This document shows positions 4,799 to 62,093 of a stretch of 64,000 nucleotides of DNA, one piece after another. The stretch is from an uncultured Chloroflexia bacterium (lineage in GTDB: Bacteria; Chloroflexota; Limnocylindria; Limnocylindrales; CSP1-4), in NCBI GenBank assembly GCA_963849495.1, contig CAWKHN010000015.1:294723-358722 (forward strand), read 5' to 3'. The notes below the pieces were generated by a model that had not been told where the DNA came from, did no database searches, and saw only the letters and a list, made by a program, of their open reading frames with translations. Made by a program: the position numbers and the translations under genes. Position 1 is the first letter of the stretch; each line of letters opens with the position of its first letter.

Positions 4799-5299
<501 letters not shown>

Positions 5300-5309
5300 G
5301 GAGGACGAC

Positions 5310-17888: not shown

Positions 17889-17901
17889 GAGGAGCGGATC
17901 G

Positions 17902-18408
17902 ATGAGCACCCAGCACATCTCGGTCACCGTCAACGGGGTGGCCCGCGAGGCCGACGTCGAGCCCCGCCTCCTGCTCGTCCACCTCCTCCGCGACGTGTTC
18001 GGTCTCACCGGCACGCACACCGGGTGCGACACGAGCAACTGCGGCGCCTGCACCATCCACGTGGACGGCCGGAGCGCGAAGTCGTGCACGATGCTGGCCG
18101 TCCAGGCGAGCGGCGCCTCGATCACCACGATCGAGGGCATGGAGCAGGGCGGCAAGCTTCACCCGCTCCAGCAGGCGTTCTGGGACCAGCACGGCCTCCA
18201 GTGCGGTTTCTGCACGCCGGGCATGATCATGGAGTCGGCCTGGATGCTGGCCCAGAACCCGGATCCCTCCGAGCAGGAGATCCGCGAGGGGATCGCCGGC
18301 AACCTGTGCCGGTGCACCGGCTACGTGAACATCGTCAAGGCGATCCAGCAGGGTGCCGCCGAGCTCCGGGCCGACACGGCCACGGGTGCCGGCGCGGCGT
18401 CCGCCTGA
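17902..18408 (+). CDS. coxS: CO dehydrogenase small (2Fe-2S) subunit, form I cluster
   Basis: [15 protein letters not shown] and [10 protein letters not shown]...CRCTGY. Confidence 0.9.
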
Positions 18409-18425
18409 GCCCCGAAGGAGACGAG

Positions 18426-20795
18426 ATGACGGAGGCGCAGGCACTCACGACGACCGCAGAGGTCTCGGGGATGGGTCACTCGATGAAGCGCAAGGAGGAC
18501 CCGCGCTTCATCCGGGGTCAGGGCGAGTACATCGAGGACGTCGTCCTGCCGAACATGGTCTGGATGGACATCGTCCGCAGCCCGTACGCCCACGCGAAGA
18601 TCAAGTCGATCGACGCCAGCGAGGCCCTGGCCATGCCGGGCGTGCTCGCGGTGATCACCGGCAAGGACCTCGAGAAGGCCGGTCTCCACTGGATGCCGAC
18701 CCTCGCCGGCGACAAGCAGATGGTGCTGCCGGTGGACACGGTGATGTACCAGGCCCAGGAGGTGGCGGCCGTCATCGCGACGACCCGCTACCAGGCGGCC
18801 GATGCGATCCAGGCGGTCCTCGTGGACTACGAGCCGCTGCCGGTGGTCGTCGATCCGTTCAAGGCGCTGCTGCCGGACGCGCCGGTGCTCCGCCCGGATC
18901 GCGGGCCGGACAAGGCCACCAACCATATCTGGCACTGGGAGTCGGGCGACAAGGACGCGACCGATGCGGCTCTCGCCGCATCGGACAAGGTCGTCCCGAT
19001 CGACGTCTACATCCCGCGCATCCACGTCTCGTCGATCGAGACCTGTGGCTGCATCGCGGACTGGAACCCCGTCCGCGCCCATCTCGACTTCCACGTCACG
19101 AGCCAGGCGGCGCACGTCTACCGGACGGTCATCAGCCTGGTCTCGGGCATCCCCGAATCGAGCATCCGGGTCAAGACGCACGACATCGGCGGCGGGTTCG
19201 GCGGCAAGGTGCCGGTCTACCCGGGTTATGTCATCGCGATCGTGGCCTCGCTGACGCTGGGGCGGCCGGTCAAGTGGATCGAGGACCGGTCCGAGAACCT
19301 GCAGGCCGATTCGTTCGCCCGTGACTACCACATCCACGCGGAGATGGGCCTCAGCAACGAGGGCCAGATCAACGGCCTGCGGGTCAAGACGCTCGCGGAC
19401 CACGGCTACACCGACGCGGCCGCCGATCCCTCGAAGTTCCCGGCCGGCCTGTTCAACGTGATCACCGGCTCCTACGACATGCCCACCGCGTTCGTCGAGG
19501 TGGACGCCGCCTACACCAACAAGCCGCCCGGCGGCGTCGCCTACCGCTGCTCGTTCCGCGTGACCGAGGCGGTCCACACCATCGAGCGGCTCGTCGACCA
19601 GGCGGCCCGCGAGATCGGCATGGACCCGGCTGCGTTCCGGATGAAGAACTTCATCCGGAAGGACCAGTTCCCGTACCACACGCCGACCGGCTGGGAGTAC
19701 GACTCGGGCGACTACCACACGGCACTGCAGAAGGCGCTGGACACGATCGGCTACGACGACCTGCGCAAGGAGCAGGCGGAGAAGCGCGCCCGCGGCGAGC
19801 TGATGGGCATCGGCATCTCGTCGTTCACGGAGATCGTCGGCGCCGGCCCGTCCCACGACTTCGACATCATCGGCATCAAGATGTTCGACTCGGCCGAGCT
19901 CCGGGTGCACCCGACCGGCTCGGCGATCCTCCGGCTCGGCGTCCAGAGCCAGGGCCAGGGCCATGAGACCACCTACGCGCAGATCGTCGCCGAGGAGCTC
20001 GGCATTCCGGCCTCGAAGGTGACGGTCGAGGAGGGCGATACGGACACCGCGCCGTACGGCCTCGGCACCTATGCCTCCCGGTCCACGCCGGTCGCCGGCG
20101 CGGCCACCGCCATCGCTGCGCGCAAGATCCGCGAGAAGACCCGCCACCTGGCCGCGCACCTGCTCGAGTGCTCGCCCAACGACCTCGAGTGGACGAACGG
20201 CAAGTGGAGCGTCACCGGCTCGCCGGACCGCTTCAAGACCATCGCGGAGCTTGCCTTCGCGGCCTACACCAATCATCCCGAGGGGATGGAGGCCGGCCTC
20301 GAGGCGGTCGACTACTACGACCCGCCCAACCTGACCTTCCCGTTCGGCAGCTACATCTGCGTCGTGGACATCGACAAGGGCACGGGGCAGGTGAAGATCC
20401 GGCGCTTCGTCGCGATCGATGACTGCGGCAACATCATCAACCCGATGATCGTGGACGGGCAGATCCACGGCGGCCTGACGATGGGCATGGCCCCGTCGCT
20501 GTACGAGGAGATCTCGTACGACGAGCAGGGCAACAACCTCGCCGGGACGTTCATGGACTACCTGCTGCCGACGGCGATGGAGACACCGTCCTGGGAGACC
20601 GGCAAGACGACCACCCCCTCGCCGCACCATCCGCTGGGCGCGAAGGGAGTGGGGGAGTCTGCGACCGTCGGCGCCCCGCCCGCCATCGCCAATGCCGTCG
20701 TGGACGCGCTCGCCCATCTCGGCGTCACCAACGTGGACATCCCGATCACGCCCCAGAAGGTGTGGCGGATCCTCCACGACAAGGGCGTGGTCTGA
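18426..20795 (+). CDS. coxL: aerobic CO dehydrogenase large subunit, form I (Mo-Cu type)
   Basis: ATG at 18426 after GAAGGAG. Active-site loop GGVAYRCSFRVTEA carries the form I VAYRCSFR signature; the Cys is the Cu ligand. Confidence 0.9.
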   Translation: MTEAQALTTTAEVSGMGHSMKRKEDPRFIRGQGEYIEDVVLPNMVWMDIVRSPYAHAKIKSIDASEALAMPGVLAVITGKDLEKAGLHWMPTLAGDKQMVLPVDTVMYQAQEVAAVIATTRYQAADAIQAVLVDYEPLPVVVDPFKALLPDAPVLRPDRGPDKATNHIWHWESGDKDATDAALAASDKVVPIDVYIPRIHVSSIETCGCIADWNPVRAHLDFHVTSQAAHVYRTVISLVSGIPESSIRVKTHDIGGGFGGKVPVYPGYVIAIVASLTLGRPVKWIEDRSENLQADSFARDYHIHAEMGLSNEGQINGLRVKTLADHGYTDAAADPSKFPAGLFNVITGSYDMPTAFVEVDAAYTNKPPGGVAYRCSFRVTEAVHTIERLVDQAAREIGMDPAAFRMKNFIRKDQFPYHTPTGWEYDSGDYHTALQKALDTIGYDDLRKEQAEKRARGELMGIGISSFTEIVGAGPSHDFDIIGIKMFDSAELRVHPTGSAILRLGVQSQGQGHETTYAQIVAEELGIPASKVTVEEGDTDTAPYGLGTYASRSTPVAGAATAIAARKIREKTRHLAAHLLECSPNDLEWTNGKWSVTGSPDRFKTIAELAFAAYTNHPEGMEAGLEAVDYYDPPNLTFPFGSYICVVDIDKGTGQVKIRRFVAIDDCGNIINPMIVDGQIHGGLTMGMAPSLYEEISYDEQGNNLAGTFMDYLLPTAMETPSWETGKTTTPSPHHPLGAKGVGESATVGAPPAIANAVVDALAHLGVTNVDIPITPQKVWRILHDKGVV

Positions 20796-42140: not shown

Positions 42141-43463
42141 TCAGGTGCCGGCGGCGTCCAGTGCCTGCTCGATGACCAGGAGGGCCTGGTCGACCTCCTC
42201 GGCCGTCGTGACCAGCGGCGGGATGATGCGGATCACGTTGACGTAGGTGCCGGCGGTCAGCAGCAGCAGCCGGCGGTCGAACGCCTCCTTCTGGACGCGC
42301 TTCGTGAGCTCCGGGTTCGGCACCCGTCCATCGCCCTCGCCCGGCTTCACGAACTCCAGCGCCACCATCAGGCCGAGGCCGCGCACGTTGCCCACCTGGG
42401 CCCTGCCGGCGCAGATCCGGCCGAGGCCGTCGAGGAGCTGTGCTCCGCGGTCGCGCGCGTTGGCGACGAGACGCTCGTCCTCGATGACGTCGAGGGTCGC
42501 CAGCGCGGCCGCACACGAGACGACGTTGCCGCCGTAGGTGCCGCCGTGCGACCCGGGCGGCATCCGGTCCAGGATCTCCCGCCGGGCGATGATCCCCGAC
42601 AGCGGCATGCCCGACGCGATGCCCTTGGCCATGACCAGGATGTCCGGCTCCACGTCCCAGTGCCGGACCGCGAACAGCTCGCCGGTCCGCCCGAACCCCG
42701 TCTGGACCTCGTCCGCGATGAGCAGGATGCCGTGCGAGGCGGTGATCTCGCGCAGGCGGGGCAGAAACCCGGGCGGCGGCACGATGTAGCCGCCTTCGCC
42801 GATCACGGGCTCCACGATGATCGCCGCGACCTTGTCCGGGTACACCAGCTGGTGGAACAGGAGGTCCAGCTGGGCCTCCCAGTCGCAGGTGCAGGCCGCC
42901 GGGTCGTGGGCGCCGCCCGCCGCGCGGTAGCAGTACGGGTAGCTGGCGTGGTACACGGACCCCGGCAGGGGCTCGAACGCCCCGCGGTAGACATCCTTGG
43001 CCGCCGTCAGCGCCATCGTCTGTGCGGTCCGGCCGTGGAATCCGTAGCGGAACGCGATGATCGCCGGCCGGCCGGTCGCGACCCGGGCAAGCTTCACCGC
43101 GGCCTCGACCGCCTCCGCCCCGGAGTTGGACAGGAACGCGCTCCAGGGCCCGCCCGGCAGCAGGTGCGTCAGCCGCTCGTACAGCCGCAGCCCGGGCTCG
43201 TGATACATGATGTTCTGCTGGCCGTGGAGGAGCTTCGCCGCCTGTGCCTGGATGGCGGCGACGACCCGTGGATGGGCGTGCCCCGTATTGGTGACACCGA
43301 TCCCGGAGGTGTAATCGAGGTAGCGGTCGCCCTCGGGCGTCACCAGCCAGCTGCCCTCGCCGTGATCGACCAGCAGGTTGGTGATCCGGCTCCAGACCGG
43401 GGGCACGACCGAGCGGTCGGGCAGGGGAGCGGCAGCCGGAGATGCCGGCGCGGTATCGACCAT
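42141..43463 (-). CDS. class III aminotransferase (GabT / putrescine aminotransferase-like)
   Basis: LIADEVQTGFGRTG and VMAKGIASG motifs. It is the last gene of the pot operon strand. Confidence 0.85.
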   Translation of the reverse strand: MVDTAPASPAAAPLPDRSVVPPVWSRITNLLVDHGEGSWLVTPEGDRYLDYTSGIGVTNTGHAHPRVVAAIQAQAAKLLHGQQNIMYHEPGLRLYERLTHLLPGGPWSAFLSNSGAEAVEAAVKLARVATGRPAIIAFRYGFHGRTAQTMALTAAKDVYRGAFEPLPGSVYHASYPYCYRAAGGAHDPAACTCDWEAQLDLLFHQLVYPDKVAAIIVEPVIGEGGYIVPPPGFLPRLREITASHGILLIADEVQTGFGRTGELFAVRHWDVEPDILVMAKGIASGMPLSGIIARREILDRMPPGSHGGTYGGNVVSCAAALATLDVIEDERLVANARDRGAQLLDGLGRICAGRAQVGNVRGLGLMVALEFVKPGEGDGRVPNPELTKRVQKEAFDRRLLLLTAGTYVNVIRIIPPLVTTAEEVDQALLVIEQALDAAGT

Positions 43464-48044: not shown

Positions 48045-49121
48045 ATGAGCGCTATCTCCGAAGCCACGGTCCTCGACGCCCTCCGCACCGTTCAGGAGCC
48101 CGAGCTGGGCGGCGACCTGGTGACGCGGAACATGGTCAAGGACCTCACGATCGACGGCGCCAACGTCGCGTTCACGATCGAGCTCACGACACCGGCCTGC
48201 CCGCTCAAGGACCAGATCGAGGCCGAGGTCCGCGCGGCGCTGGCACCGCTCGGGGTCGAGGGCATCGCCATCACCTGGGGCGCCACCGTGCGGCGGGCCA
48301 CCCCGCGTGCGGCCGAGCAGCTCGTCCCCGGCGTCAAGAACGTGATCGCCGTGGCGTCCGGCAAGGGCGGCGTCGGCAAGAGCACCGTCAGCGTCAACCT
48401 TGCCGTCGCCCTGGCGAGAGCGGGCGCCACCGTGGGTTTGCTCGATGCCGATATCACCGGTCCCAACATCCCGATGATGCTGGGCGTCGAGGGCCAGCCG
48501 ACGTCGAGCGCGAACAACAAGATCATCCCGCTCGAGCGGTACGGCGTGAAGGTGATCTCGATCCAGTTCTTCGTCCCCGAGGGCCAGCCGATCGTGTGGC
48601 GCGGTCCGCTCATCGGCGGCGCCATCCAGCAGTTCCTGCGCGACGTCGAGTGGGGCGAGCTCGACTACCTCGTCGTGGATCTGCCGCCCGGCACCTCGGA
48701 CGCGCAGCTGACGCTCGCGCAGGCGGTGCCGATCAGCGGCACGGTGCTCGTGACGACCCCGCAGGACGTGGCGCTCTCGGATGTCGCCAAGGCACTGGCC
48801 ATGCTCCAGCGCCTGAACGTTCCCGTGATCGGCATGGTCGAGAACATGAGCGCGTTCGTCTGCCCGCACTGCGGTGAGGCGACCGAGATCTTCGGGCGGG
48901 GCGGCGGCGAGCGGTTCGCGCGGGAGCACCAGCTCGACTTCCTGGGCAAGATCCCGCTCGACATCACCGTCCGGCAGGGCGGCGACGTGGGCGTGCCCGC
49001 GGTCGCGCAGCGCGAGCCGGGTCCGGCCGCCCAGGCGCTCGAGACGATGGCGGGCCTGGTTGCGGCACGGATGAGCGTTCGCGCCGAGACGACGCAGCAA
49101 CCCGTGCTCTCGATCTCGTAG
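48045..49121 (+). CDS. apbC: Mrp/ApbC/NBP35 Fe-S cluster carrier ATPase
   Basis: N-terminal DUF59 domain, deviant Walker A ASGKGGVGKST, and CPHC motif. Confidence 0.9.
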   Translation: MSAISEATVLDALRTVQEPELGGDLVTRNMVKDLTIDGANVAFTIELTTPACPLKDQIEAEVRAALAPLGVEGIAITWGATVRRATPRAAEQLVPGVKNVIAVASGKGGVGKSTVSVNLAVALARAGATVGLLDADITGPNIPMMLGVEGQPTSSANNKIIPLERYGVKVISIQFFVPEGQPIVWRGPLIGGAIQQFLRDVEWGELDYLVVDLPPGTSDAQLTLAQAVPISGTVLVTTPQDVALSDVAKALAMLQRLNVPVIGMVENMSAFVCPHCGEATEIFGRGGGERFAREHQLDFLGKIPLDITVRQGGDVGVPAVAQREPGPAAQALETMAGLVAARMSVRAETTQQPVLSIS

Positions 49122-49248
49122 GCCGGCCGGCGCGCCGCGGCCGCGGCCTCCTGGCCCCGATGTCGGCCCCGTCCTGTCCGCATGGTCGGCGGTCAGCGAC
49201 ATCCCACGGGCTGATCGTCGGCATCCAGCCGACTGTAGGATCCGTCTC

Positions 49249-49965
49249 GTGAGCCAGGCCCGCCCGTCCGCCGATCCCGCCGCGCTGCGCGCGGCGCTCG
49301 AGCGGATGCCCCTGTTTCGCGACCTCGGCGCGGCGGATCTCTCGATCCTCACCGGGACGGTCCGCACGCATCGCTACCGGCGCGGCGAGGTCATCTTCCA
49401 CCAGGGCGACCCGGGTGATGCCCTGTACATCATCCTCACCGGGCGCGTGAAGATCTCGAGCCCGTCCGAGACCGGCGTCGAGGCGATCCTCGCCACGCTG
49501 CGGCCGGGCGAGTTCTTCGGGGCCCTGGCGCTGCTCGACGGTGCCCCGCGGAGCGCATCGGCCACGGCCGTATCGGCCAGCGAGGCGCTCATCCTGCCGC
49601 GGGACCGGTTCCGGCAGCTGGTGAACGACGTCCCCGCGATCCGGGACCACGTGTTCGAGGAGCTGGCCCGGGAGCTGCGCCGGCTTACCACCCACGTGGA
49701 GGAGCTGCACTTCCTGGACATCGCGGGCCGGCTCGCGGCGCGGCTGGCACGGATGGCCGAGGAGCACGGCACGCCCGGTGACGACGGCGAGATCCGGCTC
49801 GATGGGCCGATCACACAGAGTGAGCTCGCCGCGATGGTCGGCAGCACCCGGCAGAGTGTGAACAAGCTGCTGGGCTACCTGATCGACGACCGGCTGATCC
49901 GGATCGAGCGGGACGCGATCGTGATCCAGGACGTCGCCGGACTTCACCGGGCGGCCCGCCGCTAG
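49249..49965 (+). CDS. Crp/Fnr family transcriptional regulator
   Basis: cNMP-binding domain plus a C-terminal HTH (TQSELAAMVGSTRQSVNKLLGYL). Confidence 0.85.
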   Translation: MSQARPSADPAALRAALERMPLFRDLGAADLSILTGTVRTHRYRRGEVIFHQGDPGDALYIILTGRVKISSPSETGVEAILATLRPGEFFGALALLDGAPRSASATAVSASEALILPRDRFRQLVNDVPAIRDHVFEELARELRRLTTHVEELHFLDIAGRLAARLARMAEEHGTPGDDGEIRLDGPITQSELAAMVGSTRQSVNKLLGYLIDDRLIRIERDAIVIQDVAGLHRAARR

Positions 49966-50152
49966 GCTCCCGAATCGCTGATCTCGGGGTGTTTGACCGC
50001 AGGGTCAGGAGCGCATCCGGCACACGTGGCTGGGTCCCCGAGCCGCCGGGTGACAACCGCACTCCTGCACGCCGTATCGCGCACCTGGGTGGGTCACGGG
50101 GCCGGGCGCAGGATTGGGTCCGCGCGCCTCCGCAACCAGCGAGCGACGCGGC

Positions 50153-51424
50153 TCATGCGTCGGTGGTTGCCCCGGATCTGCGCAGGACCTCGAGCAGGAC
50201 GGCAGCCGCAGCAATCGCGGCGCGGTCGGCGCTCTGGGGGCCGCGCAGGAATGCCAGCCGCCGTTCCCCGTGCGACCCGTCGGGAGTCGAGATGCCGACG
50301 TCGACCGTCGTGTCATCGCTCGCGGCGAACGCAGTGATCGCGAGACCGACATCGGCGCCGGCCGCCAGACGTGCGCGCACGGCTTCGGCCACGGCTTCGG
50401 CCACGGCTTCGGCCGCATTCTCCGAGCCCCGGGTCGTCGCCGGAAGCGATGGTCCGGCAGCACCCCCCGGTGTCGTCGCCAGGACCTCGGCGCGGGCAAG
50501 GGCCGGCAGGCCGCGCAGCAGGCCCACCAGCGCACCGCTCGTCCCTCGCTCCACCGTGGCGAGGGTCCAGCCGCGTTCGCCCAGCGCCGATCCCAGGGCA
50601 TCGGCCCAGGTCGTCCCGCCACGGGCCCAGACGTGATCGGCGAGGCTCGCCATCACGGTGGCCTCCGCCTCATCCGCAAGCTCCGCCGCGGAACGGCCAC
50701 CTTCGGCGCGGGCAGAGATTCGGACGTCCACGGCCTCGTGGCGTGCGTACGTGGCCACGATCGGGTTGGTCGCTCGCAACAGCTCGTCGCCGAGGTGCTC
50801 CGCCACCTGCGATTCCCCGATCCCGGTGAGACGGAAGGTCCGCACGTCGGTGTCGGTCCCGACACCTCTCGCCGCCAGCCTGGGCAGCACGCGGCCCGTC
50901 CACATCGGCCGCATCTCGCGCGGCGGCCCGGGGAGCGCCACGATCACCCGCCCGTCCGGCCGGTCGACCCACCAGCCGGGTGCCGTGCCGTTCGGGTTCG
51001 GCAGCAGGGTGGCGGACGGGATGATCCACGCCTGCTTCACGTTGGTCGAGGGGAACGGCTGGTGGCGCCGCTCCCAGAGTCGCTTCAGCCAGTCGAGCGT
51101 CGCCGCATCGATGCTGACCTGCTCCCCGCAGACGGCCGCGACCGCCTCCCGGGTGAGATCGTCCGGCGTCGGACCCAGACCGCCCGTGGTGATCACGAGA
51201 TCCGCGCGCTCCAGCGCCGCTCGCAGCGCCTCGACGACCACCGTCAGGTCGTCGGGCAGGCTGGACGTCCGGCCGACGGCGACACCGTGGGCAACGAGGG
51301 AGCGCGCCAGGTCGCCGCTGTTCGTGTCGAGCGTTTCGCCGACGGTCAGCTCCGTGCCGATGGCGAGGAGTTCCGCGGTCAGGATGGTGCGGGCGGTGGC
51401 GGCGATGTCGGAAGCGTCGGGCAT
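50153..51424 (-). CDS. cinA: competence/damage-inducible protein CinA
   Basis: N-terminal MoCF_biosynth domain plus a C-terminal CinA domain. Contains the AEAVx3 repeat. Confidence 0.85.
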   Translation of the reverse strand: MPDASDIAATARTILTAELLAIGTELTVGETLDTNSGDLARSLVAHGVAVGRTSSLPDDLTVVVEALRAALERADLVITTGGLGPTPDDLTREAVAAVCGEQVSIDAATLDWLKRLWERRHQPFPSTNVKQAWIIPSATLLPNPNGTAPGWWVDRPDGRVIVALPGPPREMRPMWTGRVLPRLAARGVGTDTDVRTFRLTGIGESQVAEHLGDELLRATNPIVATYARHEAVDVRISARAEGGRSAAELADEAEATVMASLADHVWARGGTTWADALGSALGERGWTLATVERGTSGALVGLLRGLPALARAEVLATTPGGAAGPSLPATTRGSENAAEAVAEAVAEAVRARLAAGADVGLAITAFAASDDTTVDVGISTPDGSHGERRLAFLRGPQSADRAAIAAAAVLLEVLRRSGATTDA

Positions 51425-51962
51425 CCACGCAGCGTAGCGAACCGCGCCTCATGGCGCGGGCGCATGCCCAGCGCGGGAGCAATCCCGGCGTCCCGCGTCG
51501 GCATTCCCGCACCCCGCACCACTTCCGATCCGGCCGTCGTTGGCGTCTCGGTCGGTCCCGGCGCTTGTCATCCACCACGCTCCGTGGTGGAAGTCAGGGT
51601 TCTGTCACCGTCCACGGCGTCCGGCGAACTGCTCCACGCACGGGGACGCCGGCTGATCCCGTCTCAACCGGAGCGTTGACCGCGCCGCTGCGGACTACCA
51701 CCAACCGACGTGGTATCTGACAGGGGATCAGGGTGTCGAGTCGGTTAGCACCACACCGCCTGGTATCTGGCAGAACCGGGACCACGAACCGGGGGACGGC
51801 CCCCCCTCGGCGCCGGCGACGACCCCGCCGCGGTCCAGCGACCGCGCGGCCCAAGCGCACCGGGCGACGGCCGCCCGCGGCGCTGGCGATGACCCGCCGC
51901 GGCCCAACGGCGCCGGCGACGAGGCGCCGCTGCGTTGGGCGACGACCCGGCCCCAGAGCACC

Positions 51963-52916
51963 TTGCCGGTCCGCGGCCGCTGGCGTACCGGTGGCCGCTG
52001 CTATGATTCGGGCTGTCCGCCGACGCTGCCCAACACCTTTCCCGGAGGACGACCACTGGATCCAGACGAGCAGGCTTCCGAAACCGAGCGTCCCGCCGCC
52101 GATCCCGGACACGCCGCGCGCGGCGACGCTCCGCCGGGGCTTCGCGCCCAGCTCGGCGCCACGAAAGCGGCCGTCCTGGCATTGCTGCGCGCGCACGTCG
52201 ACCTGGCGAAGGCCGAGGCCGACCAGATCAAGGGCGAGGTGGCCCGGGCGGCCCTGTTCGCAGGCATCGCGTTCGCCTGCCTGTTCCTGCTCGGGTTCCT
52301 GCTGCCGATTGGCCTGATCCTGTTCACCGGGGAGTGGGTGTTCGGATCGATCGGGTGGGGCCTGCTCCACGGCACGGAGATGCTCATCGCGATTGCCGTT
52401 CTTGCCGTTCTGCTGGCGCTTCGGACCAGGGGCATGCTCATGGATCTGTTGATCGCGACGGTCATCGGGCTGGTCGCCTCCGTGATCCTGGGACCGAACC
52501 TGCCGAACGAGCTGTGGCGGCGGCTCGGTGACGCCCTCAACCTGGGCGACGCCGCCTGGCGACCGCTGGCATCGGGCACCCTGGCCATGGCCGTCGTCGG
52601 TGGGCTTGTTGGAGTGCTGCTGGGTGCCCGGGCGGGTGGCGGCGGACCGGCCGTTGGCGGCCTCGTCGCCGGCGCCGTGCTCGGGGCGTCGATTGGCGCG
52701 TTCTCGGCCATCACCTTCGGCTGGCGGGTCGGTGTCGCACTGGGTGTGGCCATCGGGCTGGCCGCGTGGCCGATCCTCATGGGTGTGACAGCGGCCCGCG
52801 CAGGCATCGACACCGATGCCCTCAAAGCGCGTTTCTGGCCACAGACGACTATCGACACCACGAAGGAGACGATCGAGTGGGCGAAGGCACGATCGCCGCT
52901 CGGGCCGACGTCCTAG
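51963..52916 (+). CDS. actinobacterial holin-X (phage holin family) membrane protein
   Basis: ALLRAHVDLAKAEADQIKGEVARAALFAGIAFACLFLLGFLL is the characteristic holin-X N-terminal region, followed by multiple TM segments. The start is uncertain. Confidence 0.5.
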   Translation: MPVRGRWRTGGRCYDSGCPPTLPNTFPGGRPLDPDEQASETERPAADPGHAARGDAPPGLRAQLGATKAAVLALLRAHVDLAKAEADQIKGEVARAALFAGIAFACLFLLGFLLPIGLILFTGEWVFGSIGWGLLHGTEMLIAIAVLAVLLALRTRGMLMDLLIATVIGLVASVILGPNLPNELWRRLGDALNLGDAAWRPLASGTLAMAVVGGLVGVLLGARAGGGGPAVGGLVAGAVLGASIGAFSAITFGWRVGVALGVAIGLAAWPILMGVTAARAGIDTDALKARFWPQTTIDTTKETIEWAKARSPLGPTS

Positions 52917-53515
52917 CGGCGCGAGCCGCCCTGGACGACGAGCTCGAACGGCTCGAAGCATCGGCCCGCGCGGCCGTGGACATCCCGGCGAAGGTGCGAC
53001 GCAACCCGGTCAGGACTGCGGGCCTGGCGGCCGGCGCGGTCTTCCTGTTCGCGGGAGGCCCAGCGAAGGTGCTGCGCGGCGCCCGGAACGCGATCTTCGG
53101 CAAGCCGGATCCGCTCCCGAAGTCGATGCTGCCCAAGGAGATCGACAAGGCGCTCGGCGAGCTGGGAGACGACGGGAAGCGCGTCCGGGGCACGATCGAG
53201 CGCGAGTTCGCCGCGTACCTCAAGGACAAGGCCCCGGAGCGCAAGGAACGGGGCCTTGGCGCGGTTGCCGCGTTGCTCCTCGCATCGGCAGGCAAGCCCG
53301 TTGTGCAGCGCTATGGCCGGCAGCTCGTGGAGCAGCTGTTCTCACCGGACGGTCCAGGATTCGCGGCCCAGCTGGACAAGGTTCGCGCGCGGCGCGCTGG
53401 ACGCGACGGCGAGACGACGGACCGGGACACGGGCGGGGCGGCCCCCACGCCGACGAGCCCCACGACGACGAGCCCCGGGGCCCCGAAGGCCGGCCCGTCG
53501 GACGGCGCCGCATAG
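52877..53515 (+). CDS. DUF3618-like coiled-coil protein (holin-X partner)
   Basis: GTG at 52877 after AAGGAG overlaps the upstream gene. Its last 12 codons lie inside the 142-bp repeat. Confidence 0.5.
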   Translation: MGEGTIAARADVLAARAALDDELERLEASARAAVDIPAKVRRNPVRTAGLAAGAVFLFAGGPAKVLRGARNAIFGKPDPLPKSMLPKEIDKALGELGDDGKRVRGTIEREFAAYLKDKAPERKERGLGAVAALLLASAGKPVVQRYGRQLVEQLFSPDGPGFAAQLDKVRARRAGRDGETTDRDTGGAAPTPTSPTTTSPGAPKAGPSDGAA

Positions 53516-53620
53516 CCGACGTCCCGGCGCCGCGCACGGGGACCCCTGCCGGTCGGCGCTGGTAGGCGAGGTCGGGGTCGAACCGACACGTTCCTCACGG
53601 AGCACCGGCTCCCAAGGCCG
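53479..53620. repeat. 142-bp direct repeat, copy 1 (contains a tRNA-like T-arm/acceptor/ACCA fragment on the minus strand)
   Basis: Matches 56963..57104 with 2 mismatches. The reverse complement of 53560-53589 is GTGTCGGTTCGACCCCGACCTCGCCTACCA. Confidence 0.85.
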
Positions 53621-54073
53621 AAACGGGCCTGACTGGCCGAAACGGGCCTGACGGCAGGTATATCGATGCACCCCGCTGCAGCAGATCGGCACGCAATTGG
53701 CGAAGCGAGCCGCGCGCCGGCGGACGCATGACAAGTCGTAATGACAGAACGCTGTTGGACCCGCACGGTGCTGGCGAGTGGCAAGACGCCTGCCATTTCA
53801 TCCTTCGCGCCGCGCGCAGGATGTCGACGGTTCGGTCGTTCGGGGGCGATCGCGGGCGACATAAGGAACAGACGCCAATGGGCTCTGGCGAGGTGGTCGC
53901 TGCGTCAACCAGCGGCAGACCGTCTGCAGGATTGGGCGGCTCCCGGTGGGGCGTCCACGTGGCCGTGCCGGCAGACAGCCCCACGTTCGAGAAGCATCCG
54001 CGGCTGACCGCCTGCCTCGGGGCTTCGGAGAACCGCCTGCGGGCCGCGCTCGACATGCTCGCGGTGGCACGGG

Positions 54074-56461
54074 ATGGAGCAGCCGGCGAGGGCGAGGATC
54101 GCGCAGGGGCGGGACGTGGCAACGCAGGTTGAACCGCAGATGGACGCCAACTCGGAGGCCCGCTACCGGGGCCTGCTCGAGGCGGCCCCCGACGCGATGG
54201 TCGTGGTCAACCAGCGCGGCGAGATCGTCCTGCTCAACGTCCAGGCCGAGAAGCAGTTCGGCTACAGCCGCGATGAGCTCCTCGGGCAGCCCATCACGAA
54301 CATCATCCCGGAAGGCTTCGCCGAGCGGATCATCGCCGACGACCTGCGCTCGGCGGCCGACGCCCTGGCCCAGGTCATCGGCACCGGGATCGAGCTCGTC
54401 GCCCGCCGACGGGACGGCACCGAGTTCCCGATCGAGATCATGCTCAGCCCCCTCGAGAGCGCCGAGGGGATCCTCGTCACGGCAGCCATCCGTGACATCA
54501 GCGCGCGGCAGGCGGCGGAGGAAGAGCTGCGTCGCACTTCCTCGTATCTCGAGAACCTGATCGACTACGCGAACGCGCCGATCATCGTGTGGGACCCCGA
54601 CCAGCGGATCACGCGGTTCAACCATGCGTTCGAGCGGCTGACGCAACGTCGGGCGGACGAGGTCCTGGGTCAGCAGCTGGGCATGCTGTTCCCCGATCAG
54701 TCTCGCGCGGAGTCGCTCGCGAGGATCGAGCTCGCTGTCCGGGGCACGGGCCTGGAGAGCCACGAGATCCCGATCCTTCGCGCGGACGGTGATGTGCGGG
54801 CCGTCCTGTGGAGCTCGGCGAACATCTATGACACGCCGAGTGGTGGCGGGCTCCTCGCCGTCATCGCGCAGGGCCAGGACATCACGGCGAGCCGAAAGGC
54901 CGAGTGGCATGTCGTCCAGGCCGAGGCCCGCTACCGGGGCCTGCTCGAGGCGGCCCCCGACGCGATGGTCGTGGTCAACCAGCGCGGCGAGATCGTCCTG
55001 CTCAACGTCCAGGCCGAGAAGCAGTTCGGCTACAGCCGCGATGAGCTCCTCGGGCAGCCCATCACGAACATCATCCCGGAAGGCTTCGCCGAGCGGATCA
55101 TCGCCGACGACCTGCGCTCGGCGGCCGACGCCCTGGCCCAGGTCATCGGCACCGGGATCGAGCTCGTCGCCCGCCGACGGGACGGCACCGAGTTCCCGAT
55201 CGAGATCATGCTCAGCCCCCTCGAGAGCGCCGAGGGGATCCTCGTCACGGCAGCCATCCGTGACATCAGCGCGCGGCGGGCGGCGGAGGAGGCCCGCTTC
55301 GTCGAGAAGGAGCTCGCCGTCGTCACCCTGAACAGCATCAGTGACGCCGTGATCAGCGTGGATATGTCCGGCGGGGTCACGCTTCTCAACCTCGTCGCCG
55401 AGACGATGACCGGCTGGTCGTCACGGGAGGCAGCGGGTCGACCCGTCGCCGACGTGCTCCGCGTCCTGGATGCGACGACGCGCGAGAGCGTCGCGATTCC
55501 AACGGAGGCCGCAGTCCGAAACGACCGCACCGAGCATCTTCCGTCGGGCTGCCTCCTCATCCGCCGCGATGGCCACGAGATCGCCATCGCCGACTCGGTA
55601 TCACCGCTCCACGACCGCGACGATAACGTCATAGGCGCGGTGATCGTCGCTCGCGACGAGAGCGTGGCACGCGAGATGGCGAGGCGAGTACGCGCCGTCG
55701 GTGACGAGCTCGAACGGAGTAACCGGGAGCTGGACGACTTCGCGGCGATCGCGTCGCATGACCTGCAGGAGCCGCTTCGGAAAATTCGGGCATTCGGGGA
55801 TCGGCTCGCCGAGCATTCCACGAGCGCGCTCGACGAGGAGGCTCGGGACTACCTCCGGAGAATGACGGATGCCGCCGGCAGGATGCAGACCTTGATCGCC
55901 GACCTCCTGGAGTACTCACAGGTGACGATCCGACCTGAGCCGCCGCAGCCGGTGGATCTGGGCCAGGTCGTCGCCGAGGTGCTCTCCGACCTCGACGAGG
56001 GCATCCGGTCGAGACATGGGAGCGTGATCGTCGGTCGGCTTCCCACCGTGTCGGCAAGCCCTCTGCAGATGCGCCAGCTGTTCCAGAACCTGATCGCAAA
56101 CGCCCTCAAGTTTCATCCGGACGGTGTTGCCCCGGAAGTGCACGTGGACGCGACCGCGCGCGACGATGGCGCAGGAGCAGGAGAGCGCCGCCATGGCTCT
56201 CCGGTCTGGGCGATCTCCGTGAGCGACAACGGGATTGGCTTCAGCGAGAAGTACGCCGAGCGGATCTTTGCGCCGTTCCAGCGCCTCAACGGACGTCAGA
56301 CCTTCGAGGGCGCGGGGATGGGCCTGGCAATCTGCCGCCGGATCGTGACCCTGCGTGGAGGGACGATCACCGCCACGTCACACCCTGGCGCAGGCGCCAC
56401 GTTCGTCGTCACGCTTCCCGGCATCCCGCCGGGCGCCGCCGCAAGCGGACCTGCGGGATGA
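54074..56461 (+). CDS. multi-PAS sensor histidine kinase (PAS x ~4, HisKA, HATPase_c)
   Basis: HisKA H-box IASHDLQEPLRKI. HATPase motifs DNGIGF and GAGMGLAICRRIV. Confidence 0.85.
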   Translation: MEQPARARIAQGRDVATQVEPQMDANSEARYRGLLEAAPDAMVVVNQRGEIVLLNVQAEKQFGYSRDELLGQPITNIIPEGFAERIIADDLRSAADALAQVIGTGIELVARRRDGTEFPIEIMLSPLESAEGILVTAAIRDISARQAAEEELRRTSSYLENLIDYANAPIIVWDPDQRITRFNHAFERLTQRRADEVLGQQLGMLFPDQSRAESLARIELAVRGTGLESHEIPILRADGDVRAVLWSSANIYDTPSGGGLLAVIAQGQDITASRKAEWHVVQAEARYRGLLEAAPDAMVVVNQRGEIVLLNVQAEKQFGYSRDELLGQPITNIIPEGFAERIIADDLRSAADALAQVIGTGIELVARRRDGTEFPIEIMLSPLESAEGILVTAAIRDISARRAAEEARFVEKELAVVTLNSISDAVISVDMSGGVTLLNLVAETMTGWSSREAAGRPVADVLRVLDATTRESVAIPTEAAVRNDRTEHLPSGCLLIRRDGHEIAIADSVSPLHDRDDNVIGAVIVARDESVAREMARRVRAVGDELERSNRELDDFAAIASHDLQEPLRKIRAFGDRLAEHSTSALDEEARDYLRRMTDAAGRMQTLIADLLEYSQVTIRPEPPQPVDLGQVVAEVLSDLDEGIRSRHGSVIVGRLPTVSASPLQMRQLFQNLIANALKFHPDGVAPEVHVDATARDDGAGAGERRHGSPVWAISVSDNGIGFSEKYAERIFAPFQRLNGRQTFEGAGMGLAICRRIVTLRGGTITATSHPGAGATFVVTLPGIPPGAAASGPAG

Positions 56462-56913
56462 GGCGCACCCCGGGGGCAGGCATCCTGTGTGTCGAGGACG
56501 ACTCCGACGATCGCCTGCTCGTCGAGATGGCGCACCGCGACAGCGGCGTCGTCAACCAGCTGGAATTCGTTGCCGACAGCGACGAGGCCCTCGAGTATCT
56601 GCGCCGTGTCGGCCGCTACGCGGATCGGGCCGGAAAGGACCAGCCCGGGATCATCCTGCTCGACCTGAACCTGCCGGGGACGGACGGCCGTGAAACCCTC
56701 GTGATCCTCAAGGCAGACCCTACATTGCGGCGCATCCCCGTGATTGTCCTGACAACCTCGTCGGCCCGGCGTGACATCGCCGCGAGCTATGACAATGGCG
56801 CCAACTCCTACATCGTCAAGCCCACGGCATTCGCCGGCCTTGTCCGTCTCTTCGAGCGCCTGTGCGACTACTGGTTCGAGATCGGGTCGCTGCCGCCGGA
56901 GGCCGGAACGTGA
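56458..56913 (+). CDS. single-domain CheY-like response regulator
   Basis: Receiver domain with ...ILLDLNLPGTDG... and KP (IVKPTAF). ATGA overlap with the kinase stop. Confidence 0.85.
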   Translation: MRRTPGAGILCVEDDSDDRLLVEMAHRDSGVVNQLEFVADSDEALEYLRRVGRYADRAGKDQPGIILLDLNLPGTDGRETLVILKADPTLRRIPVIVLTTSSARRDIAASYDNGANSYIVKPTAFAGLVRLFERLCDYWFEIGSLPPEAGT

Positions 56914-56962
56914 AAGCGCCATCACCCGCCCGACTAGCGGGTGCGCCGCGTCATCAGGCCGC

Positions 56963-57104
56963 GGCCCCGAAGGCCGGCCCGTCGGACGGCGCCGCATAGC
57001 CGACGTCCCGGCGCCGCGCACGGGGACCCCTGCCGGTCGGCGCTGGTAGGCGAGGTCGGGGTCGAACCGACACGTTCCTCACGGAACACCGGCTCCTAAG
57101 GCCG
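56963..57104. repeat. 142-bp direct repeat, copy 2
   Basis: See copy 1. Confidence 0.85.
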
Positions 57105-57208
57105 GCGCGTCTGCCATTTCGCCACTCGCCCGAGAGGGAGTCTAGCGCTCGGGACCCGCTGGGCCCCGCCCCCGGTGCTGCGCGAACCCGCGAACGAAGG
57201 CGTGCCTT

Positions 57209-58429
57209 CTAGGCTCCTCCGGACGCACCGGCGACCTGCCGCCCGGCAAGCCAGACCGAGGCGATGCGGTCGGGGAGCGTGTCGAGCGCGTAGGGGTCAC
57301 CGTCCACGACGACGAAGTCGGCCAGCTTGCCGGGCTCGATCGTGCCCCGCTTTCCGTCCACGCCCATGAGCTGGGCCGCGCTCCGTGTCGTCGCCTCCAG
57401 GACGGCGCCGGGCGACATGCCCAGCCCGGCCATCAGCGCCAGCTCCCGGAGGTTCTGGCCGTGGGGCGTGACCCCCGTGTCGGTGCCCATGGCGATTCGG
57501 ACCCCGGCCTCGATCGCGCGGCGGACGGCCGTGCGGTGCTGGTCGATCGTGGCGCGGGCCTTCTCGATCACGTTGGGCGCGATCGTGGCCCCGGCCTCGG
57601 CCGCATCGATCACGCCCTGCGGAGCGACGAGCGTCGGTACCAGCCAGGTGCCCTTCCGGAGCATGAGCTCGATGCCCTCCTCGTCGAGGAAGATCCCGTG
57701 CTCGATCGAGCGGATGCCGGACCGCACGGCGTTCTTGATGCCGTCGGCCGCCTGCGCGTGGGCCATCACGAACATTCCTGCGGCGGTCGCCTCCTCGACG
57801 AGCACGTCGAGCTCGGCGGGGCGGAAGTGGGCATGGGACGGATCGTCACGCGGGGAGGACACGCCGCCCGACGTCGCGACCTTGACCACGTCGGCACCGT
57901 CTCGATGGAGCTCGCGGATCTTGCGCCGCATCTCGTCGGGGCCGTCCACGATCGCGCTGGGCATGCCCGGGTAGGCGTTCAGCAGCGGGATGTCCACGCC
58001 CGACACGTACCAGTCGTCGCCGTGGCCGCCGGTCTGGCTGAGCATCGTGAGGCTGATCTGCATCCTCGGCCCGGGGATCAGCCCGGTCTCAACGGCCTCC
58101 TTGATGCCGAGGTCTGCCCCGCCCGCGTCGCGGATGGAGGTGATCCCGGACCGGAGCGTCGTCGCGAGGTTGCGCGCTGCCACGTAGAAGCGGAGGGAGA
58201 AGGGCTGGTTCGCCATTCGCCAGGCGTCGACGCTGTCGAGCACGACGTGGACGTGCGTGTCGAAGAAGCCCGGGAGCAGCGTCCGGCCGCCGAGATCGAC
58301 CTCCTCGTCGCCGTCCAGCCGCGGGCCGACGTCGACGATGCGACCGTCCTCGACGCTGACATCGGCGGGACCCGGATCCGTGCCCGTGCCGTCGAACACC
58401 GAACCGCCGCGAAAGACCGTGCGCGTCAT
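57209..58429 (-). CDS. amidohydrolase family metal-dependent hydrolase
   Basis: HVHV metal-binding block near the N-terminus, and MGTDTG / LADFVVVDGDP C-terminal motifs. Confidence 0.8.
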   Translation of the reverse strand: MTRTVFRGGSVFDGTGTDPGPADVSVEDGRIVDVGPRLDGDEEVDLGGRTLLPGFFDTHVHVVLDSVDAWRMANQPFSLRFYVAARNLATTLRSGITSIRDAGGADLGIKEAVETGLIPGPRMQISLTMLSQTGGHGDDWYVSGVDIPLLNAYPGMPSAIVDGPDEMRRKIRELHRDGADVVKVATSGGVSSPRDDPSHAHFRPAELDVLVEEATAAGMFVMAHAQAADGIKNAVRSGIRSIEHGIFLDEEGIELMLRKGTWLVPTLVAPQGVIDAAEAGATIAPNVIEKARATIDQHRTAVRRAIEAGVRIAMGTDTGVTPHGQNLRELALMAGLGMSPGAVLEATTRSAAQLMGVDGKRGTIEPGKLADFVVVDGDPYALDTLPDRIASVWLAGRQVAGASGGA

Positions 58430-58535
58430 GGCGCCTCCCTGATGATCGCTGAGCAACCCAGTCTACGAGCGTGCCCCGCGATCCGCGATGCGTCGGGCTC
58501 CGCCCCCGCCGGCCGACCCACCCTATACTCGCCCG

Positions 58536-60038
58536 GCGATGAATGTGACCGCCACCCCTGCCCCCAAGAGCTCCATCCTCCTCGAGATCGAGGTTCCGGC
58601 CGACCGCCTGGACCGCGCCGTGCGCGAGGCCGTCCAGCGCCTGTCGCGCCGGACGCGCGTCGCCGGCTTCCGGCCCGGCAAGGCCCCGAGACCGATCCTC
58701 GAGCGCGTCCTCGGCCCCGGCGCGGTGCTGGACGAGGCCGTCGAGCACCTGGTCCAGGACGCGTACCGCGAGGCCCTCGTCGAGCAGGCGCTCGTCCCGC
58801 TCACGAACGCGGACGTCGAGGTGGTCCAGGCCGAGGAGGGCAAGCCCCTCGTGTTCAAGGCGACCATTCAGGTGCGGCCGGAGATCGAGCTCGGCGACTA
58901 CAAGGACTTCAAGTTCGGCCCCGAGATCGAGACGGTCGACGACGCCAAGGTGGACAAGGTCGTCGAGGAGCTGCGGGACCAGAACGCGACCCTTGCGGCG
59001 GTCGAGGACCGCGGGGCTCGCAACGGTGACTGGGCGGTCATCGGCTTCGTGGGCACCCGCGAGGGTGAGCCGTTCGACGGCGGCACGAGCGACCGGATGC
59101 CCCTGATCCTCGGCGAGGAGCGGCTCATCCCGGGCTTCGAGGCCAACCTGCTGGGCCTGGAGCCGGGCCAGTCCACCGAGTTCGACATCACGTTCCCGGA
59201 CGACTATGCCGAGCAGACCCTGGCCGGCACGCAGGCACACTTCGCAGTCGACCTCAAGGAGCTTCGCGAGAAGGTCATGCCGGTGCTGGACGACGCGTTC
59301 GCCCAGAACATGGGCGAGTACGCGGACCTGGCGGCCCTGCGGGCGGAGATCGGGGAGAGGCTGCGGCGCAACGCGCTCGACCACGCCCGTCATGAGTTCG
59401 CGGACCGGATCATCGAGTACGCCGTCTCCAACTCGACCATCGACCTGCCGGACGTCCTGGTGGACCAGGAGGTCGAGGTGATGCACGACGAGTTCCGGGC
59501 GACGCTCGCCCGGCAGGGCATCGCCGAGCCCGCCTACCTCAAGGCCACGAACCAGACGGAGGCGGAGCTCCACACCGAGTTCCGGCCCCGCGCCGAGCAC
59601 CGCACGAAGGTGCTGCTGGCCCTCTCGAAGATCGCGGAGGCCGAAGGGATCAGCGTCCCCGAGGCGGACGTCGAGGCCGAGATCGACCGGGCCCGCTCCC
59701 GGTACCAGGACCCGAAGACGGTGCGCTACTTCGAGTCTGACCGGGGCCGCAGCTTCATCCGCAGCTCGCTCCGGCGCACCCGCGTGATCGAGGGGCTCGT
59801 GGACGCGTGGCTGGCGGCCCACCCCGAGCACCCGCCGCTGCCGCACCTCGAGGACGATGCACCCTCCGCCGTCGACGGGCCCCAGGCCGCAGCCTCGGCA
59901 GCCATCGGTGCCACCGACCCGGGCTCACTGCCGGGGCACTCCCACGAGGATCACGTTCACGACCACGACCACGACCACGGCGACGCCGATGACGCGGTCG
60001 GGGCCGAGACCTCCGGCGGCGGCGCTGCACGCCGCTAG
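58536..60038 (+). CDS. tig: trigger factor
   Basis: N-terminal ribosome-binding motif (GFRPGKAPR), PPIase and C-domain layout. An unusual His/Asp-rich C-terminal tail. Confidence 0.9.
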   Translation, partial: AMNVTATPAPKSSILLEIEVPADRLDRAVREAVQRLSRRTRVAGFRPGKAPRPILERVLGPGAVLDEAVEHLVQDAYREALVEQALVPLTNADVEVVQAEEGKPLVFKATIQVRPEIELGDYKDFKFGPEIETVDDAKVDKVVEELRDQNATLAAVEDRGARNGDWAVIGFVGTREGEPFDGGTSDRMPLILGEERLIPGFEANLLGLEPGQSTEFDITFPDDYAEQTLAGTQAHFAVDLKELREKVMPVLDDAFAQNMGEYADLAALRAEIGERLRRNALDHARHEFADRIIEYAVSNSTIDLPDVLVDQEVEVMHDEFRATLARQGIAEPAYLKATNQTEAELHTEFRPRAEHRTKVLLALSKIAEAEGISVPEADVEAEIDRARSRYQDPKTVRYFESDRGRSFIRSSLRRTRVIEGLVDAWLAAHPEHPPLPHLEDDAPSAVDGPQAAASAAIGATDPGSLPGHSHEDHVHDHDHDHGDADDAVGAETSGGGAARR

Positions 60039-60080
60039 CGTCACCTGTCCGTGCCCGATCGAACCCAGGGGAGACCCACG

Positions 60081-60764
60081 ATGCTCGTCCCGATGGTCAT
60101 CGAATCCACCAGCCGCGGTGAGCGCGCGTACGACATCTACTCGCGCCTGCTCCGTGAGCGGATCATCTTCCTCGGGGACGCGATCGACGACCATCTCGCG
60201 AACCTCGTGATCGCGCAGCTGCTGTTCCTCGAATCCGAGGATCCCGAGAAGGACATCAGCCTGTACGTCAACTCGCCCGGCGGCGTCGTGACCAGCGGGC
60301 TGGCGATCTACGACACGATGCAGTACCTGCGCGCCCCGGTGAGCACCATCTGCATCGGCATGGCGGCGTCGATGGCGGCGGTCCTGCTCTCGGCCGGTGC
60401 GAAGGGCAAGCGCTACGCGCTGCCGCACAGCCGGATCATGATCCACCAGGGCTCGGGTGGCTTCCGCGGCAATGCCGCGGACGCCGTGATCCAGATGAAG
60501 GAGTGGGAGTACCTGGTCCAGGTGAACCACGAGATCCTGGCGCGACACACCGGCCAGCCGCTCGAGAAGGTCGTCCACGACACCGATCGGGACTATTTCA
60601 TGGGTCCCGAGCAGGCCAAGGACTATGGCATCATCGACGCGGTGTACACGCTGACCGGCGATTCCCTCATCGCGCAGGCGCACGACGCGGGGTTGACGGG
60701 CGGCGAGGGCCCCAGTGTCACGGACCCGGGCTCTTCCGACCCCGGGCCTGCGACGGACCGCTAG
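60081..60764 (+). CDS. clpP: ATP-dependent Clp protease proteolytic subunit
   Basis: Catalytic triad context: GMAASMAA (Ser), HQGSGG (His). C-terminal ~35-aa extension. Confidence 0.9.
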
Positions 60765-60776
60765 GCCGAGGACGAC

Positions 60777-62093
60777 GTGCCGGTGACCACGACGGGCGGC
60801 TCGAAGGGAACGAAGGTTCCCTACCGCTGCTCCTTCTGCGGAAAGAGCCAGGAACAGGTTCGCAAGCTCATCGCGGGCCAGGGTGTCTATATCTGCGATG
60901 AGTGCATCAACCTGTGCCAGGAGATCATCGAGGAGGAGATGCTGGACGCGCCCAAGCCGCGTCCGGCCCAGCAGAAGCTCCCCAACCCCCGGCAGATCAC
61001 CGTCTCGCTCGACCAGTACGTGATCGCCCAGGACAAGGCGAAGAAGGTCCTGGCAGTCGCCGTCTACAACCACTACAAGCGCATCAACGCCGGTTCGACG
61101 GTCGACGACGTGGAGCTCCAGAAGTCGAACGTGCTGCTCGTGGGTCCCACGGGCTCCGGCAAGACGCTCCTGGCCCAGACGCTGGCCCGGATCCTCGATG
61201 TCCCGTTCTGCATCGCGGACGCCACCTCGCTCACCGAGGCCGGCTACGTCGGTGAGGACGTCGAGAACATCCTGCTGCGCCTGATCCAGGCCGCGGACTT
61301 CGACGTTGCCCGGGCCCAGCGCGGGATCATCTACATCGACGAGATCGACAAGATCGCCCGCAAGGCGGACAACCCGTCGATCACCCGTGACGTCTCGGGC
61401 GAGGGCGTCCAGCAGGCCCTGCTCAAGATCCTCGAGGGCACCGTTGCCAACGTGCCGCCGCAGGGTGGCCGGAAGCATCCGCACCAGGACTTCATCCAGA
61501 TCGACACCACGAACATCCTGTTCATCTGCGGCGGGGCGTTCGACGGGCTGGAGAAGATCGTCGAGGAGCGGGTGGGGAAGCGCTCGATCGGCTTCGGGGC
61601 CGATGGCGCCATGTCCCGCACGGACAAGGCGAAGATCATCGAGAAGCTGATGCCGGAGGATCTGCTCAAGTTCGGGCTGATCCCGGAGTTCATCGGCCGG
61701 CTGCCCGTGATCGTTACGCTCTCACCGCTGACCGTGGACGACCTGATGCGGGTCCTCGTGGAGCCGAAGAACGCCGTCACCCGCCAGTTCCAGAAGTTCC
61801 TCCAGCTCGACAAGGTGGAGCTGGTGTTCACGGACGGAGCGCTGCAGGCGGCCGCCGAAGTGGCGCTCGATCGCAAGACCGGTGCGCGGGCCCTGCGCTC
61901 CATCGTGGAGGAGGCGCTGCTCGAGGTGATGTACGACATCCCCGAGCGCACCGACGTGCGGAAGTGCCTGATCATCGAGGAGACGATCCGCACCGGCCGC
62001 GCGCCCCTGCTCCTGACCAAGTCGGACGTGGACAAGGGCGTCGACGAGACGAACTACGAGGAGTGGCTCTCGGCCCAGGGCGCGAGCGCCTAG
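60777..62093 (+). CDS. clpX: ATP-dependent Clp protease ATP-binding subunit ClpX
   Basis: Zn-finger CSFCGKSQ...CDEC, Walker A GPTGSGKT, Walker [10 protein letters not shown]. Confidence 0.9.

Follow-up and report, generated by a model that had tools for sequence, protein, structure and literature searches.

The gene analysed here encodes a sensor histidine kinase with two nearly identical PAS domains, and lies in a 64,000-nucleotide stretch of DNA from an uncultured Chloroflexia bacterium (the window, by which we mean this whole stretch). The open reading frame (ORF; 54074..56461, + strand) was taken from the ORF list and assigned using Pfam and NCBIfam, and its product is a predicted cytoplasmic protein of 795 amino acids (aa). 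The public annotation of the same gene, P0002, is 100% identical and starts at M23 (54140), which gives 773 aa. The domain order is a 27-aa leader, PAS_A, PAS_B, PAS_A', PAS_D, HisKA and HATPase_c, and no membrane region was predicted in the leader. Pfam finds four PAS domains together with HisKA (residues 553-616) and HATPase_c (663-782). Both PAS models match in four stretches and score above their cut-offs, with 196.7 bits for PF00989 and 265.7 bits for TIGR00229 of NCBIfam. Indeed, with the H-box 'ASHDLQEPLRK' the protein has the features of a HisKA-class sensor histidine kinase.

Base-by-base comparison of the ORF with itself reveals a direct repeat, the two arms of which (54155-54522 and 54923-55290) are each 368 nucleotides (nt) long and lie 768 nt, or 256 codons, apart. 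The first arm (54155..54522, +) encodes PAS_A copy 1 (residues 28-150) and the second (54923..55290, +) PAS_A copy 2, named PAS_A' (residues 284-406). Between them lies PAS_B (54523..54922, +; residues 151-283), a domain of a different PAS type that is not homogenised. The arms agree in an exact run of 355 nt (54155-54509), which is followed by a sole mismatch at 54510 (CAG/CGG, giving Q146/R402) and then by 12 matching bases up to 54522/55290. Outside both ends of the repeat, at 54155/54923 and at 54522/55290, the match is at random level. At the protein level the repeat covers 123 aa with one substitution: residues 28-145 equal 284-401 (118 aa), residues 147-150 equal 403-406 (AAEE), and from 151/407 onward the sequences are unrelated (EELRRTSSY... 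versus ARFVEKELA...). The PAS unit is 128 aa long, hence the offset of 768 nt corresponds to 2 x 384 nt. The kinase repeat is far above chance, and it is one of only two high-identity repeats present in the 64-kb window.

An initial annotation, made from the letters of the window, had already recognised the single mismatch and the offset of 768 nt, both of which we find as well. The length of ~405 bp that it gave (54155-54559/54923-55327) has to be shortened to 368 nt ending at 54522/55290, and the 135-aa identity that it read from this (28-162 = 284-418) was 12 residues too long, the correct figure being the 123 aa with the Q146/R402 substitution. Its view that the intervening PAS domain is only distantly related agrees with our comparison, in which PAS_B shares 27% identity with PAS_A over 79 aa (E = 0.002).

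The PAS domains were compared with the FixL and DosP sensor modules (PDB 1y28, 1dp6, 9cmf). The nearest sequence match of PAS_A is the heme-PAS domain of FixL (E = 3e-15), and the A+B pair of the window matches the PAS-A/PAS-B region of the DosP model, where PAS_B corresponds weakly to DosP PAS-B. A FixL/DosP-type heme PAS identity was rejected for PAS_A. The heme-ligating His of FixL ('SRHDSY') aligns with an Ile of 'AERIIADD', so that the proximal His is missing, and the scores against the NCBIfam equivalogs of DosP and FixL are far under their cut-offs (152 versus 857 and 183 versus 850, respectively). The PAS_A sequence contains no His, Cys or Trp at all, and a LOV-type flavin PAS identity was likewise rejected, since the adduct-forming Cys is absent. 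By these residues and scores, PAS_A is placed outside the FixL/DosP heme sensors and the LOV domains.

Relatives of the locus were collected by two routes: L001 came from a scan of one genome per species, and L161, L162 and L163 from a protein search with the A-B-A' part, after which their DNA was retrieved. A metagenome-assembled genome (MAG) labelled uncultured Chloroflexia, L001 is ~90% identical to the window in nucleotides at the locus and shares the leader-PAS_A-PAS_B-PAS_A' array, in which it likewise has an internal repeat of its own, again offset by 768 nt. In L161, a contig from the European Nucleotide Archive, A-B-A' is also present, and here 385 nt match exactly at an offset of 768. 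Among the window, L001 and L161, nucleotide identity is ~90% for the leader, PAS_B and the B-to-A' junction ('VVQA|EARYRG'), all of which are orthologous. The array of L163 reads A-B-A'-A'', with a repeat of 399 nt that holds 1 mismatch at an offset of 747 and a third copy at ~90%; that of L162, whose contig starts inside the array, reads ..B-A-B-A, and its repeat covers 669 nt or more, 97.3% identical at the same offset of 747. In L043, a more distant Chloroflexia MAG, a gene resembling the first kinase of these clusters holds four exact tandem PAS_A units and no PAS_B (4987-6513; 384-nt period, 100% over 1143 nt), which is either a very recent amplification or the result of complete homogenisation. 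With PAS_B alone as query, a protein search yielded no A-B-A' proteins beyond these, and its matches were all short (240 aa or less); it did show B-type PAS domains elsewhere, as the last PAS ahead of HisKA.

As background on PAS_A arrays in general, soil metagenomes were scanned with the peptide EFPIEIM only, which finds relatives at ~60% aa identity rather than orthologues. The 80 loci obtained (L081-L160) hold 307 PAS_A-type units, 2-7 per locus, often arranged as 384-nt tandem arrays. Neighbouring units are 85-94% identical in many of these loci, and the mean identity is 82% within a locus versus 77% between loci. The clade of the window is at the extreme end of this tendency of PAS_A to be amplified. 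At some soil loci, units at an offset of 768 nt are more alike than those at 384 nt, hinting at higher-order repeats of two units.

We then compared the copies within and between genomes, using an ungapped alignment of 15 PAS_A units from six lineages (the window, L001, L161, L162, L163 and L043), a distance matrix and a neighbour-joining tree. Within genomes the differences per 368 nt amount to 1 in the window, 11 in L001, 0 in L161, 19 in L162 and 0-1 in L043; in L163 there are 0 between A1 and A2, and 47 to A3. Between lineages they amount to 29-84. The tree places the PAS_A copies of one genome together, and does so for each of the six lineages. When the window, L001 and L161 are compared, 29-30 sites show fixed differences from genome to genome yet are common to both copies inside each, and not a single site backs positional orthology, in which A1 would group with A1 and A2 with A2. 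Since the relatives share the layout, with orthologous flanks and junctions, while the copies cluster by genome, the duplication is older than the divergence of these genomes. What differences remain between the two L001 copies lie mostly at both edges of the tract, as is to be expected if conversion tracts seldom extend to the limits of homology.

These patterns bear directly on the age of the duplication. The initial annotation had taken DNA-level identity as the mark of a very recent segmental duplication, that is, one in the window genome in which the copy has not yet diverged, and a difference of 1 nt in 368 is what such an event would leave behind. A simple tandem duplication is contradicted, however, by the repeat itself, because the identity extends over no more than 368 nt of each 768-nt period and PAS_B occurs only once. 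Furthermore, the two-copy layout with orthologous junctions is found in L001 and L161, which are ~8-10% diverged in nucleotides, and an array at an offset of 747 in L162 and L163. The copies of L001 and L161 are near-identical as well, each pair with its own lineage-specific substitutions. The claim of recency thus does not stand, and we regard a recent origin of the second copy as extremely improbable.

If the duplication is not recent, the same layout could have arisen more than once, by independent parallel duplications or by horizontally acquired PAS_A cassettes in each lineage. The PAS_A type is indeed widespread and often amplified, and the B-to-A' linker of L162 and L163 differs from that of the others. 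Nevertheless, this scenario requires insertion point, frame and 768-nt offset to have coincided on three occasions, in the window, L001 and L161, amid orthologous flanks, and a cassette that replaced exactly the homologous segment by the other copy would be gene conversion in effect. Repeated independent origins are highly improbable on these grounds.

Another way to keep two domains alike is selection or convergence at the protein level, with no exchange of DNA, and purifying selection does act on the PAS_A domains, which probably respond to one and the same signal. The nucleotide changes speak against it: 10-16 of the 29-30 sites shared within and fixed between genomes fall in codons that stay synonymous, which is a third to just over half of them, and third codon positions are exact across 355 nt. 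Nor is PAS_A unusually conserved, since between genomes its identity is 90-92% and that of PAS_B 92%. The probability of this explanation is therefore close to negligible, and the shared synonymous changes show that homogenisation works on DNA and not via convergence of the protein.

The last alternative to be weighed is an artefact of assembly or polishing, in which the second copy, or its near-perfect identity, was made by the assembler or by ambiguously mapped reads. Repeats that stay exact beyond the length of a short read are a well-known source of error, and the L162 contig does start inside the repeat; the warning of an assembly risk in the initial annotation was thus reasonable. A spurious duplication is nonetheless unlikely to explain the multi-copy structure, which is present in six independent assemblies from different projects. 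The identity is also graded (0, 1, 11 and 19 differences), indicating that the assemblies kept the copies apart; the ORF reads through in frame without interruption, its PAS-PAS linkers have canonical lengths, and the window belongs to a contig of ~508 kb. Taken together, we consider an artefact very unlikely.

The comparison thus indicates that the duplication is old and that its copies were homogenised independently in each genome. The hallmarks of concerted evolution are all found at this locus: the copies are closer to each other within a genome than between genomes, the duplication predates the divergence, with its age less certain for L162 and L163 (offset 747), and synonymous sites are homogenised. 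Very probably, therefore, the A-B-A' array is ancestral to a clade of Chloroflexia-like bacteria and the DNA identity of its outer domains is kept by recurrent intragenic gene conversion, a case of concerted evolution within one gene. From the sequence patterns, which the alignments display directly, we infer both the mechanism of recombination and the selection discussed below.

In such a process, the ~370 nt of identity would be ample substrate for homologous recombination between direct repeats, and non-reciprocal recombination (gene conversion) between the PAS_A copies would leave them homogenised. The homogenised tract would be bounded by the homology of the copies, from the PAS N-cap (EARYRG) to the post-PAS linker, and its confinement to this region would let PAS_B and the flanks evolve normally. 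Reciprocal or unequal exchange between the same copies would instead lead to loss or gain of the 768-nt A-B unit, and would do so in frame (256 codons). Unequal exchange of this kind may thus account for the differing numbers of A and A-B units among the relatives, namely A-B-A', B-A-B-A, A-B-A-A'' and four tandem A. The proposal in the initial annotation of a recombination hot spot able to expand and contract the array gains support from the comparison, in which the number of units differs among lineages and exchange between copies evidently took place in every one of them. Because A-B-A' has been retained in at least three lineages despite this route to its deletion, we infer that there is selection for the full array, as this retention suggests.

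Several points weigh against concerted evolution by gene conversion. Conversion is read from a pattern, and repeated replacement of one copy by other routes would look alike. The copy number and exact identity in the window are those of its assembly, consensus polishing could inflate the identity of repeats in any single assembly, and the PAS_A copies are sensor domains by prediction. Finally, the B-to-A' linker of L162 and L163 is shorter (offset 747) and their tract reaches into the upstream flank, such that an independent duplication is possible there.

It is also conceivable that the identity of the PAS_A domains is more than a neutral consequence of recombination and is itself exploited by the cell. 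The two copies might need to remain identical so as to act as a matched pair around PAS_B, for instance to sense one ligand cooperatively or through a pseudo-symmetric PAS-PAS interaction, or the 368-nt repeats might serve as an in-frame switch of high frequency. We consider such a use unlikely. If the switch version were true, loss or gain of the A-B unit (256 codons) would generate subpopulations with arrays of different lengths, resembling phase variation and acting on a cytoplasmic sensor kinase.

A second event has shaped the window kinase at its C-terminal side. In L001 and L161 the order of genes is an EAL protein, a first histidine kinase with the array (HK1; A-B-A'-HisKA-HATPase), a second, hybrid histidine kinase (HK2; REC-PAS_D-HisKA-HATPase), a REC-only regulator and a REC-GAF protein. 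An extra REC-only gene stands between HK1 and HK2 in L162 and L043, and L002 contains HK2 and the regulator. In blastn comparisons the colinearity of the window with its relatives breaks off where PAS_A' ends and resumes in the linker ahead of PAS_D. Relative to L001 (7218-8341) and L161 (7173-8296), 1124 nt are missing from the window, corresponding to the HisKA-HATPase of HK1 and the REC domain of HK2. Colinearity and junction alignments place the in-frame fusion junction, from the HK1 array to the pre-PAS_D linker of HK2, at 55285..55293 (+). It falls in a short homology, GAGGA(A/G)GC(G/C)CT, and in L161 the two sites share an 11-nt exact match. The product is in frame, with a PAS-to-PAS linker of 27 residues that equals the A-to-B linker. 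The same junction also determines where the repeat stops on its 3' side in the window; in L161 the identity goes 10 nt further.

Since the outgroups (L001, L161, L162, L043 and L002) have REC-PAS_D-HisKA-HATPase as a separate gene, the fusion in the window is the derived state. According to these alignments the window kinase is thus derived, an in-frame deletion of 1124 nt having joined the HK1 array to the PAS_D-HisKA-HATPase core of the adjacent hybrid HK2. The fusion came at the cost of one kinase core (that of HK1) and one receiver domain (that of HK2), and the array now sits directly on the HK2 kinase. An arrangement of two kinases, HK1 and a REC-gated HK2, has hence collapsed into one, which argues for a functional linkage of both. 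The REC-only response regulator that follows (56458..56913, +; 151 aa) has a start that overlaps the kinase stop codon, and it is kept after HK2 in all relatives.

Other parts of the cluster have been lost around the kinase. A remnant of the PAS-EAL gene (53709..54071, +), comprising its upstream region and the N-terminal coding part, was recognised by alignment to L001 and L161. In these two relatives the gene, which is of the type of cyclic di-GMP phosphodiesterases, lies upstream of HK1, and ~2.1 kb of its body is deleted in the window (L001:3557-5725; L161:3612-6011). The REC-GAF gene, which follows the regulator in L001, L161 and L162, is absent from the window.

The kinase-regulator pair is bracketed by a direct repeat of 146 nt with a spacing of 3484 nt. 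Its left copy (53475..53620, +) consists of the last 41 nt of the ORF 52766-53515, a 44-nt spacer and a 61-nt 3' fragment of tRNA-Leu in which the anticodon TAG is mutated to TGG. The right copy (56959..57104, +) is built of the same three parts, has 2 mismatches (98% identical) and overlaps the 3' 61 nt of an intact tRNA-Leu (anticodon TAG; 57044..57131, - strand; ARAGORN). As in an integrative element, direct repeats holding the 3' part of a tRNA flank the segment. No integrase or recombinase is encoded in the bracketed 3.5 kb, the whole content of which is the EAL-gene remnant, the kinase and the response regulator. The 146-nt repeats look like an att-like scar of an insertion or rearrangement at a tRNA gene, and reading them as an integrative element is not simply reconciled with the missing integrase or with the inverted orientation in L001. 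A perfect 19-nt tandem (GGCCGAAACGGGCCTGACT, 1.9 copies) lies at 53616-53652, exactly where the left 146-nt repeat ends on its inner side, and may be a footprint of the event that made the junction.

The signalling cluster is found immediately 3' of tRNA-Leu(TAG) in the window as well as in L001. Scans of L002, L043, L005, L075 and L161-L163 found no tRNA, so that the association of the cluster with tRNA-Leu is limited to these two. In the comparison between them (48073-62014 versus L001:1-15328), the block of cluster and tRNA-Leu is inverted with respect to its flanks on either side, one towards the trigger factor and the other at 48-53 kb. An amidohydrolase gene (57209-58456, -) stands between the tRNA and the trigger-factor gene in the window and is missing from L001, and the flanks of L161 differ from those of the window. 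Elsewhere in the window, several stretches of 4810-8220 and 17315-20002 are 70-74% identical at a distance of ~13.1 kb and are probably paralogous gene clusters. An inverted pair (2430-2580 versus 42682-42832) spans 151 nt with 72% complementarity.

The locus provides evidence at the nucleotide level, from several independent genomes, that concerted evolution can occur in the sensor-domain arrays of bacterial histidine kinases. Domains that are nearly identical should therefore not be taken as recent duplications in such proteins, and domain phylogenies of multi-PAS proteins can mislead. The locus also offers a naturally replicated system for following the homogenisation, expansion and contraction of signalling modules by recombination. 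For practical purposes, it is a place where assemblies are at risk of error and where length polymorphism is likely.

Concerted evolution by gene conversion is known in bacteria, for example for tufA/tufB, and a systematic survey found it to be rare, with 26 genes and no case of a signalling domain (Wang & Chen 2018, PMC6053082). The locus resembles tufA/tufB in that paralogues are closer within a genome than orthologues are between genomes, in several lineages, with homogenised synonymous sites, a pattern for which recurrent gene conversion is held responsible. Whereas cases of the tufA/tufB type concern whole genes that are usually far apart, the window case concerns two domains of one ORF, 768 nt apart, with a non-homogenised domain between them and a tract of ~370 nt. 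Repeats within single genes are also homogenised in repeat-bearing bacterial surface proteins. A similar case is the intragenic homogenisation of tandem structural repeats, as in the spidroins of spider silk (PMC3933166). There too, the repeats of one ORF are homogenised by recombination and their number varies among relatives. Spidroin repeats, however, are structural and arranged head-to-tail, whereas those of the window are folded sensor domains, interspersed as A-B-A' in a cytoplasmic signalling enzyme.

With the multi-PAS 'PAS domain S-box' kinases of soil, the window shares the PAS_A-type unit of 128 aa (EFPIEIM, ~60% aa identity). Those arrays are mostly pure tandems of A with moderate identity, in contrast to the clade of the window, where two units are kept at 97-100% across an unrelated unit. 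The joining of HK1 and the hybrid HK2, adjacent signalling genes in the relatives, into one ORF resembles the 'Rosetta stone' domain fusions of two-component systems; unlike such fusions in general, the event in the window can be reconstructed to the nucleotide (the 1124-nt deletion and the short linker homology). Our literature search found no account of PAS domains that evolve in concert within a kinase. Set beside these known systems, the repeat is a real feature that calls for no new mechanism, a clear but not unprecedented case of concerted evolution.

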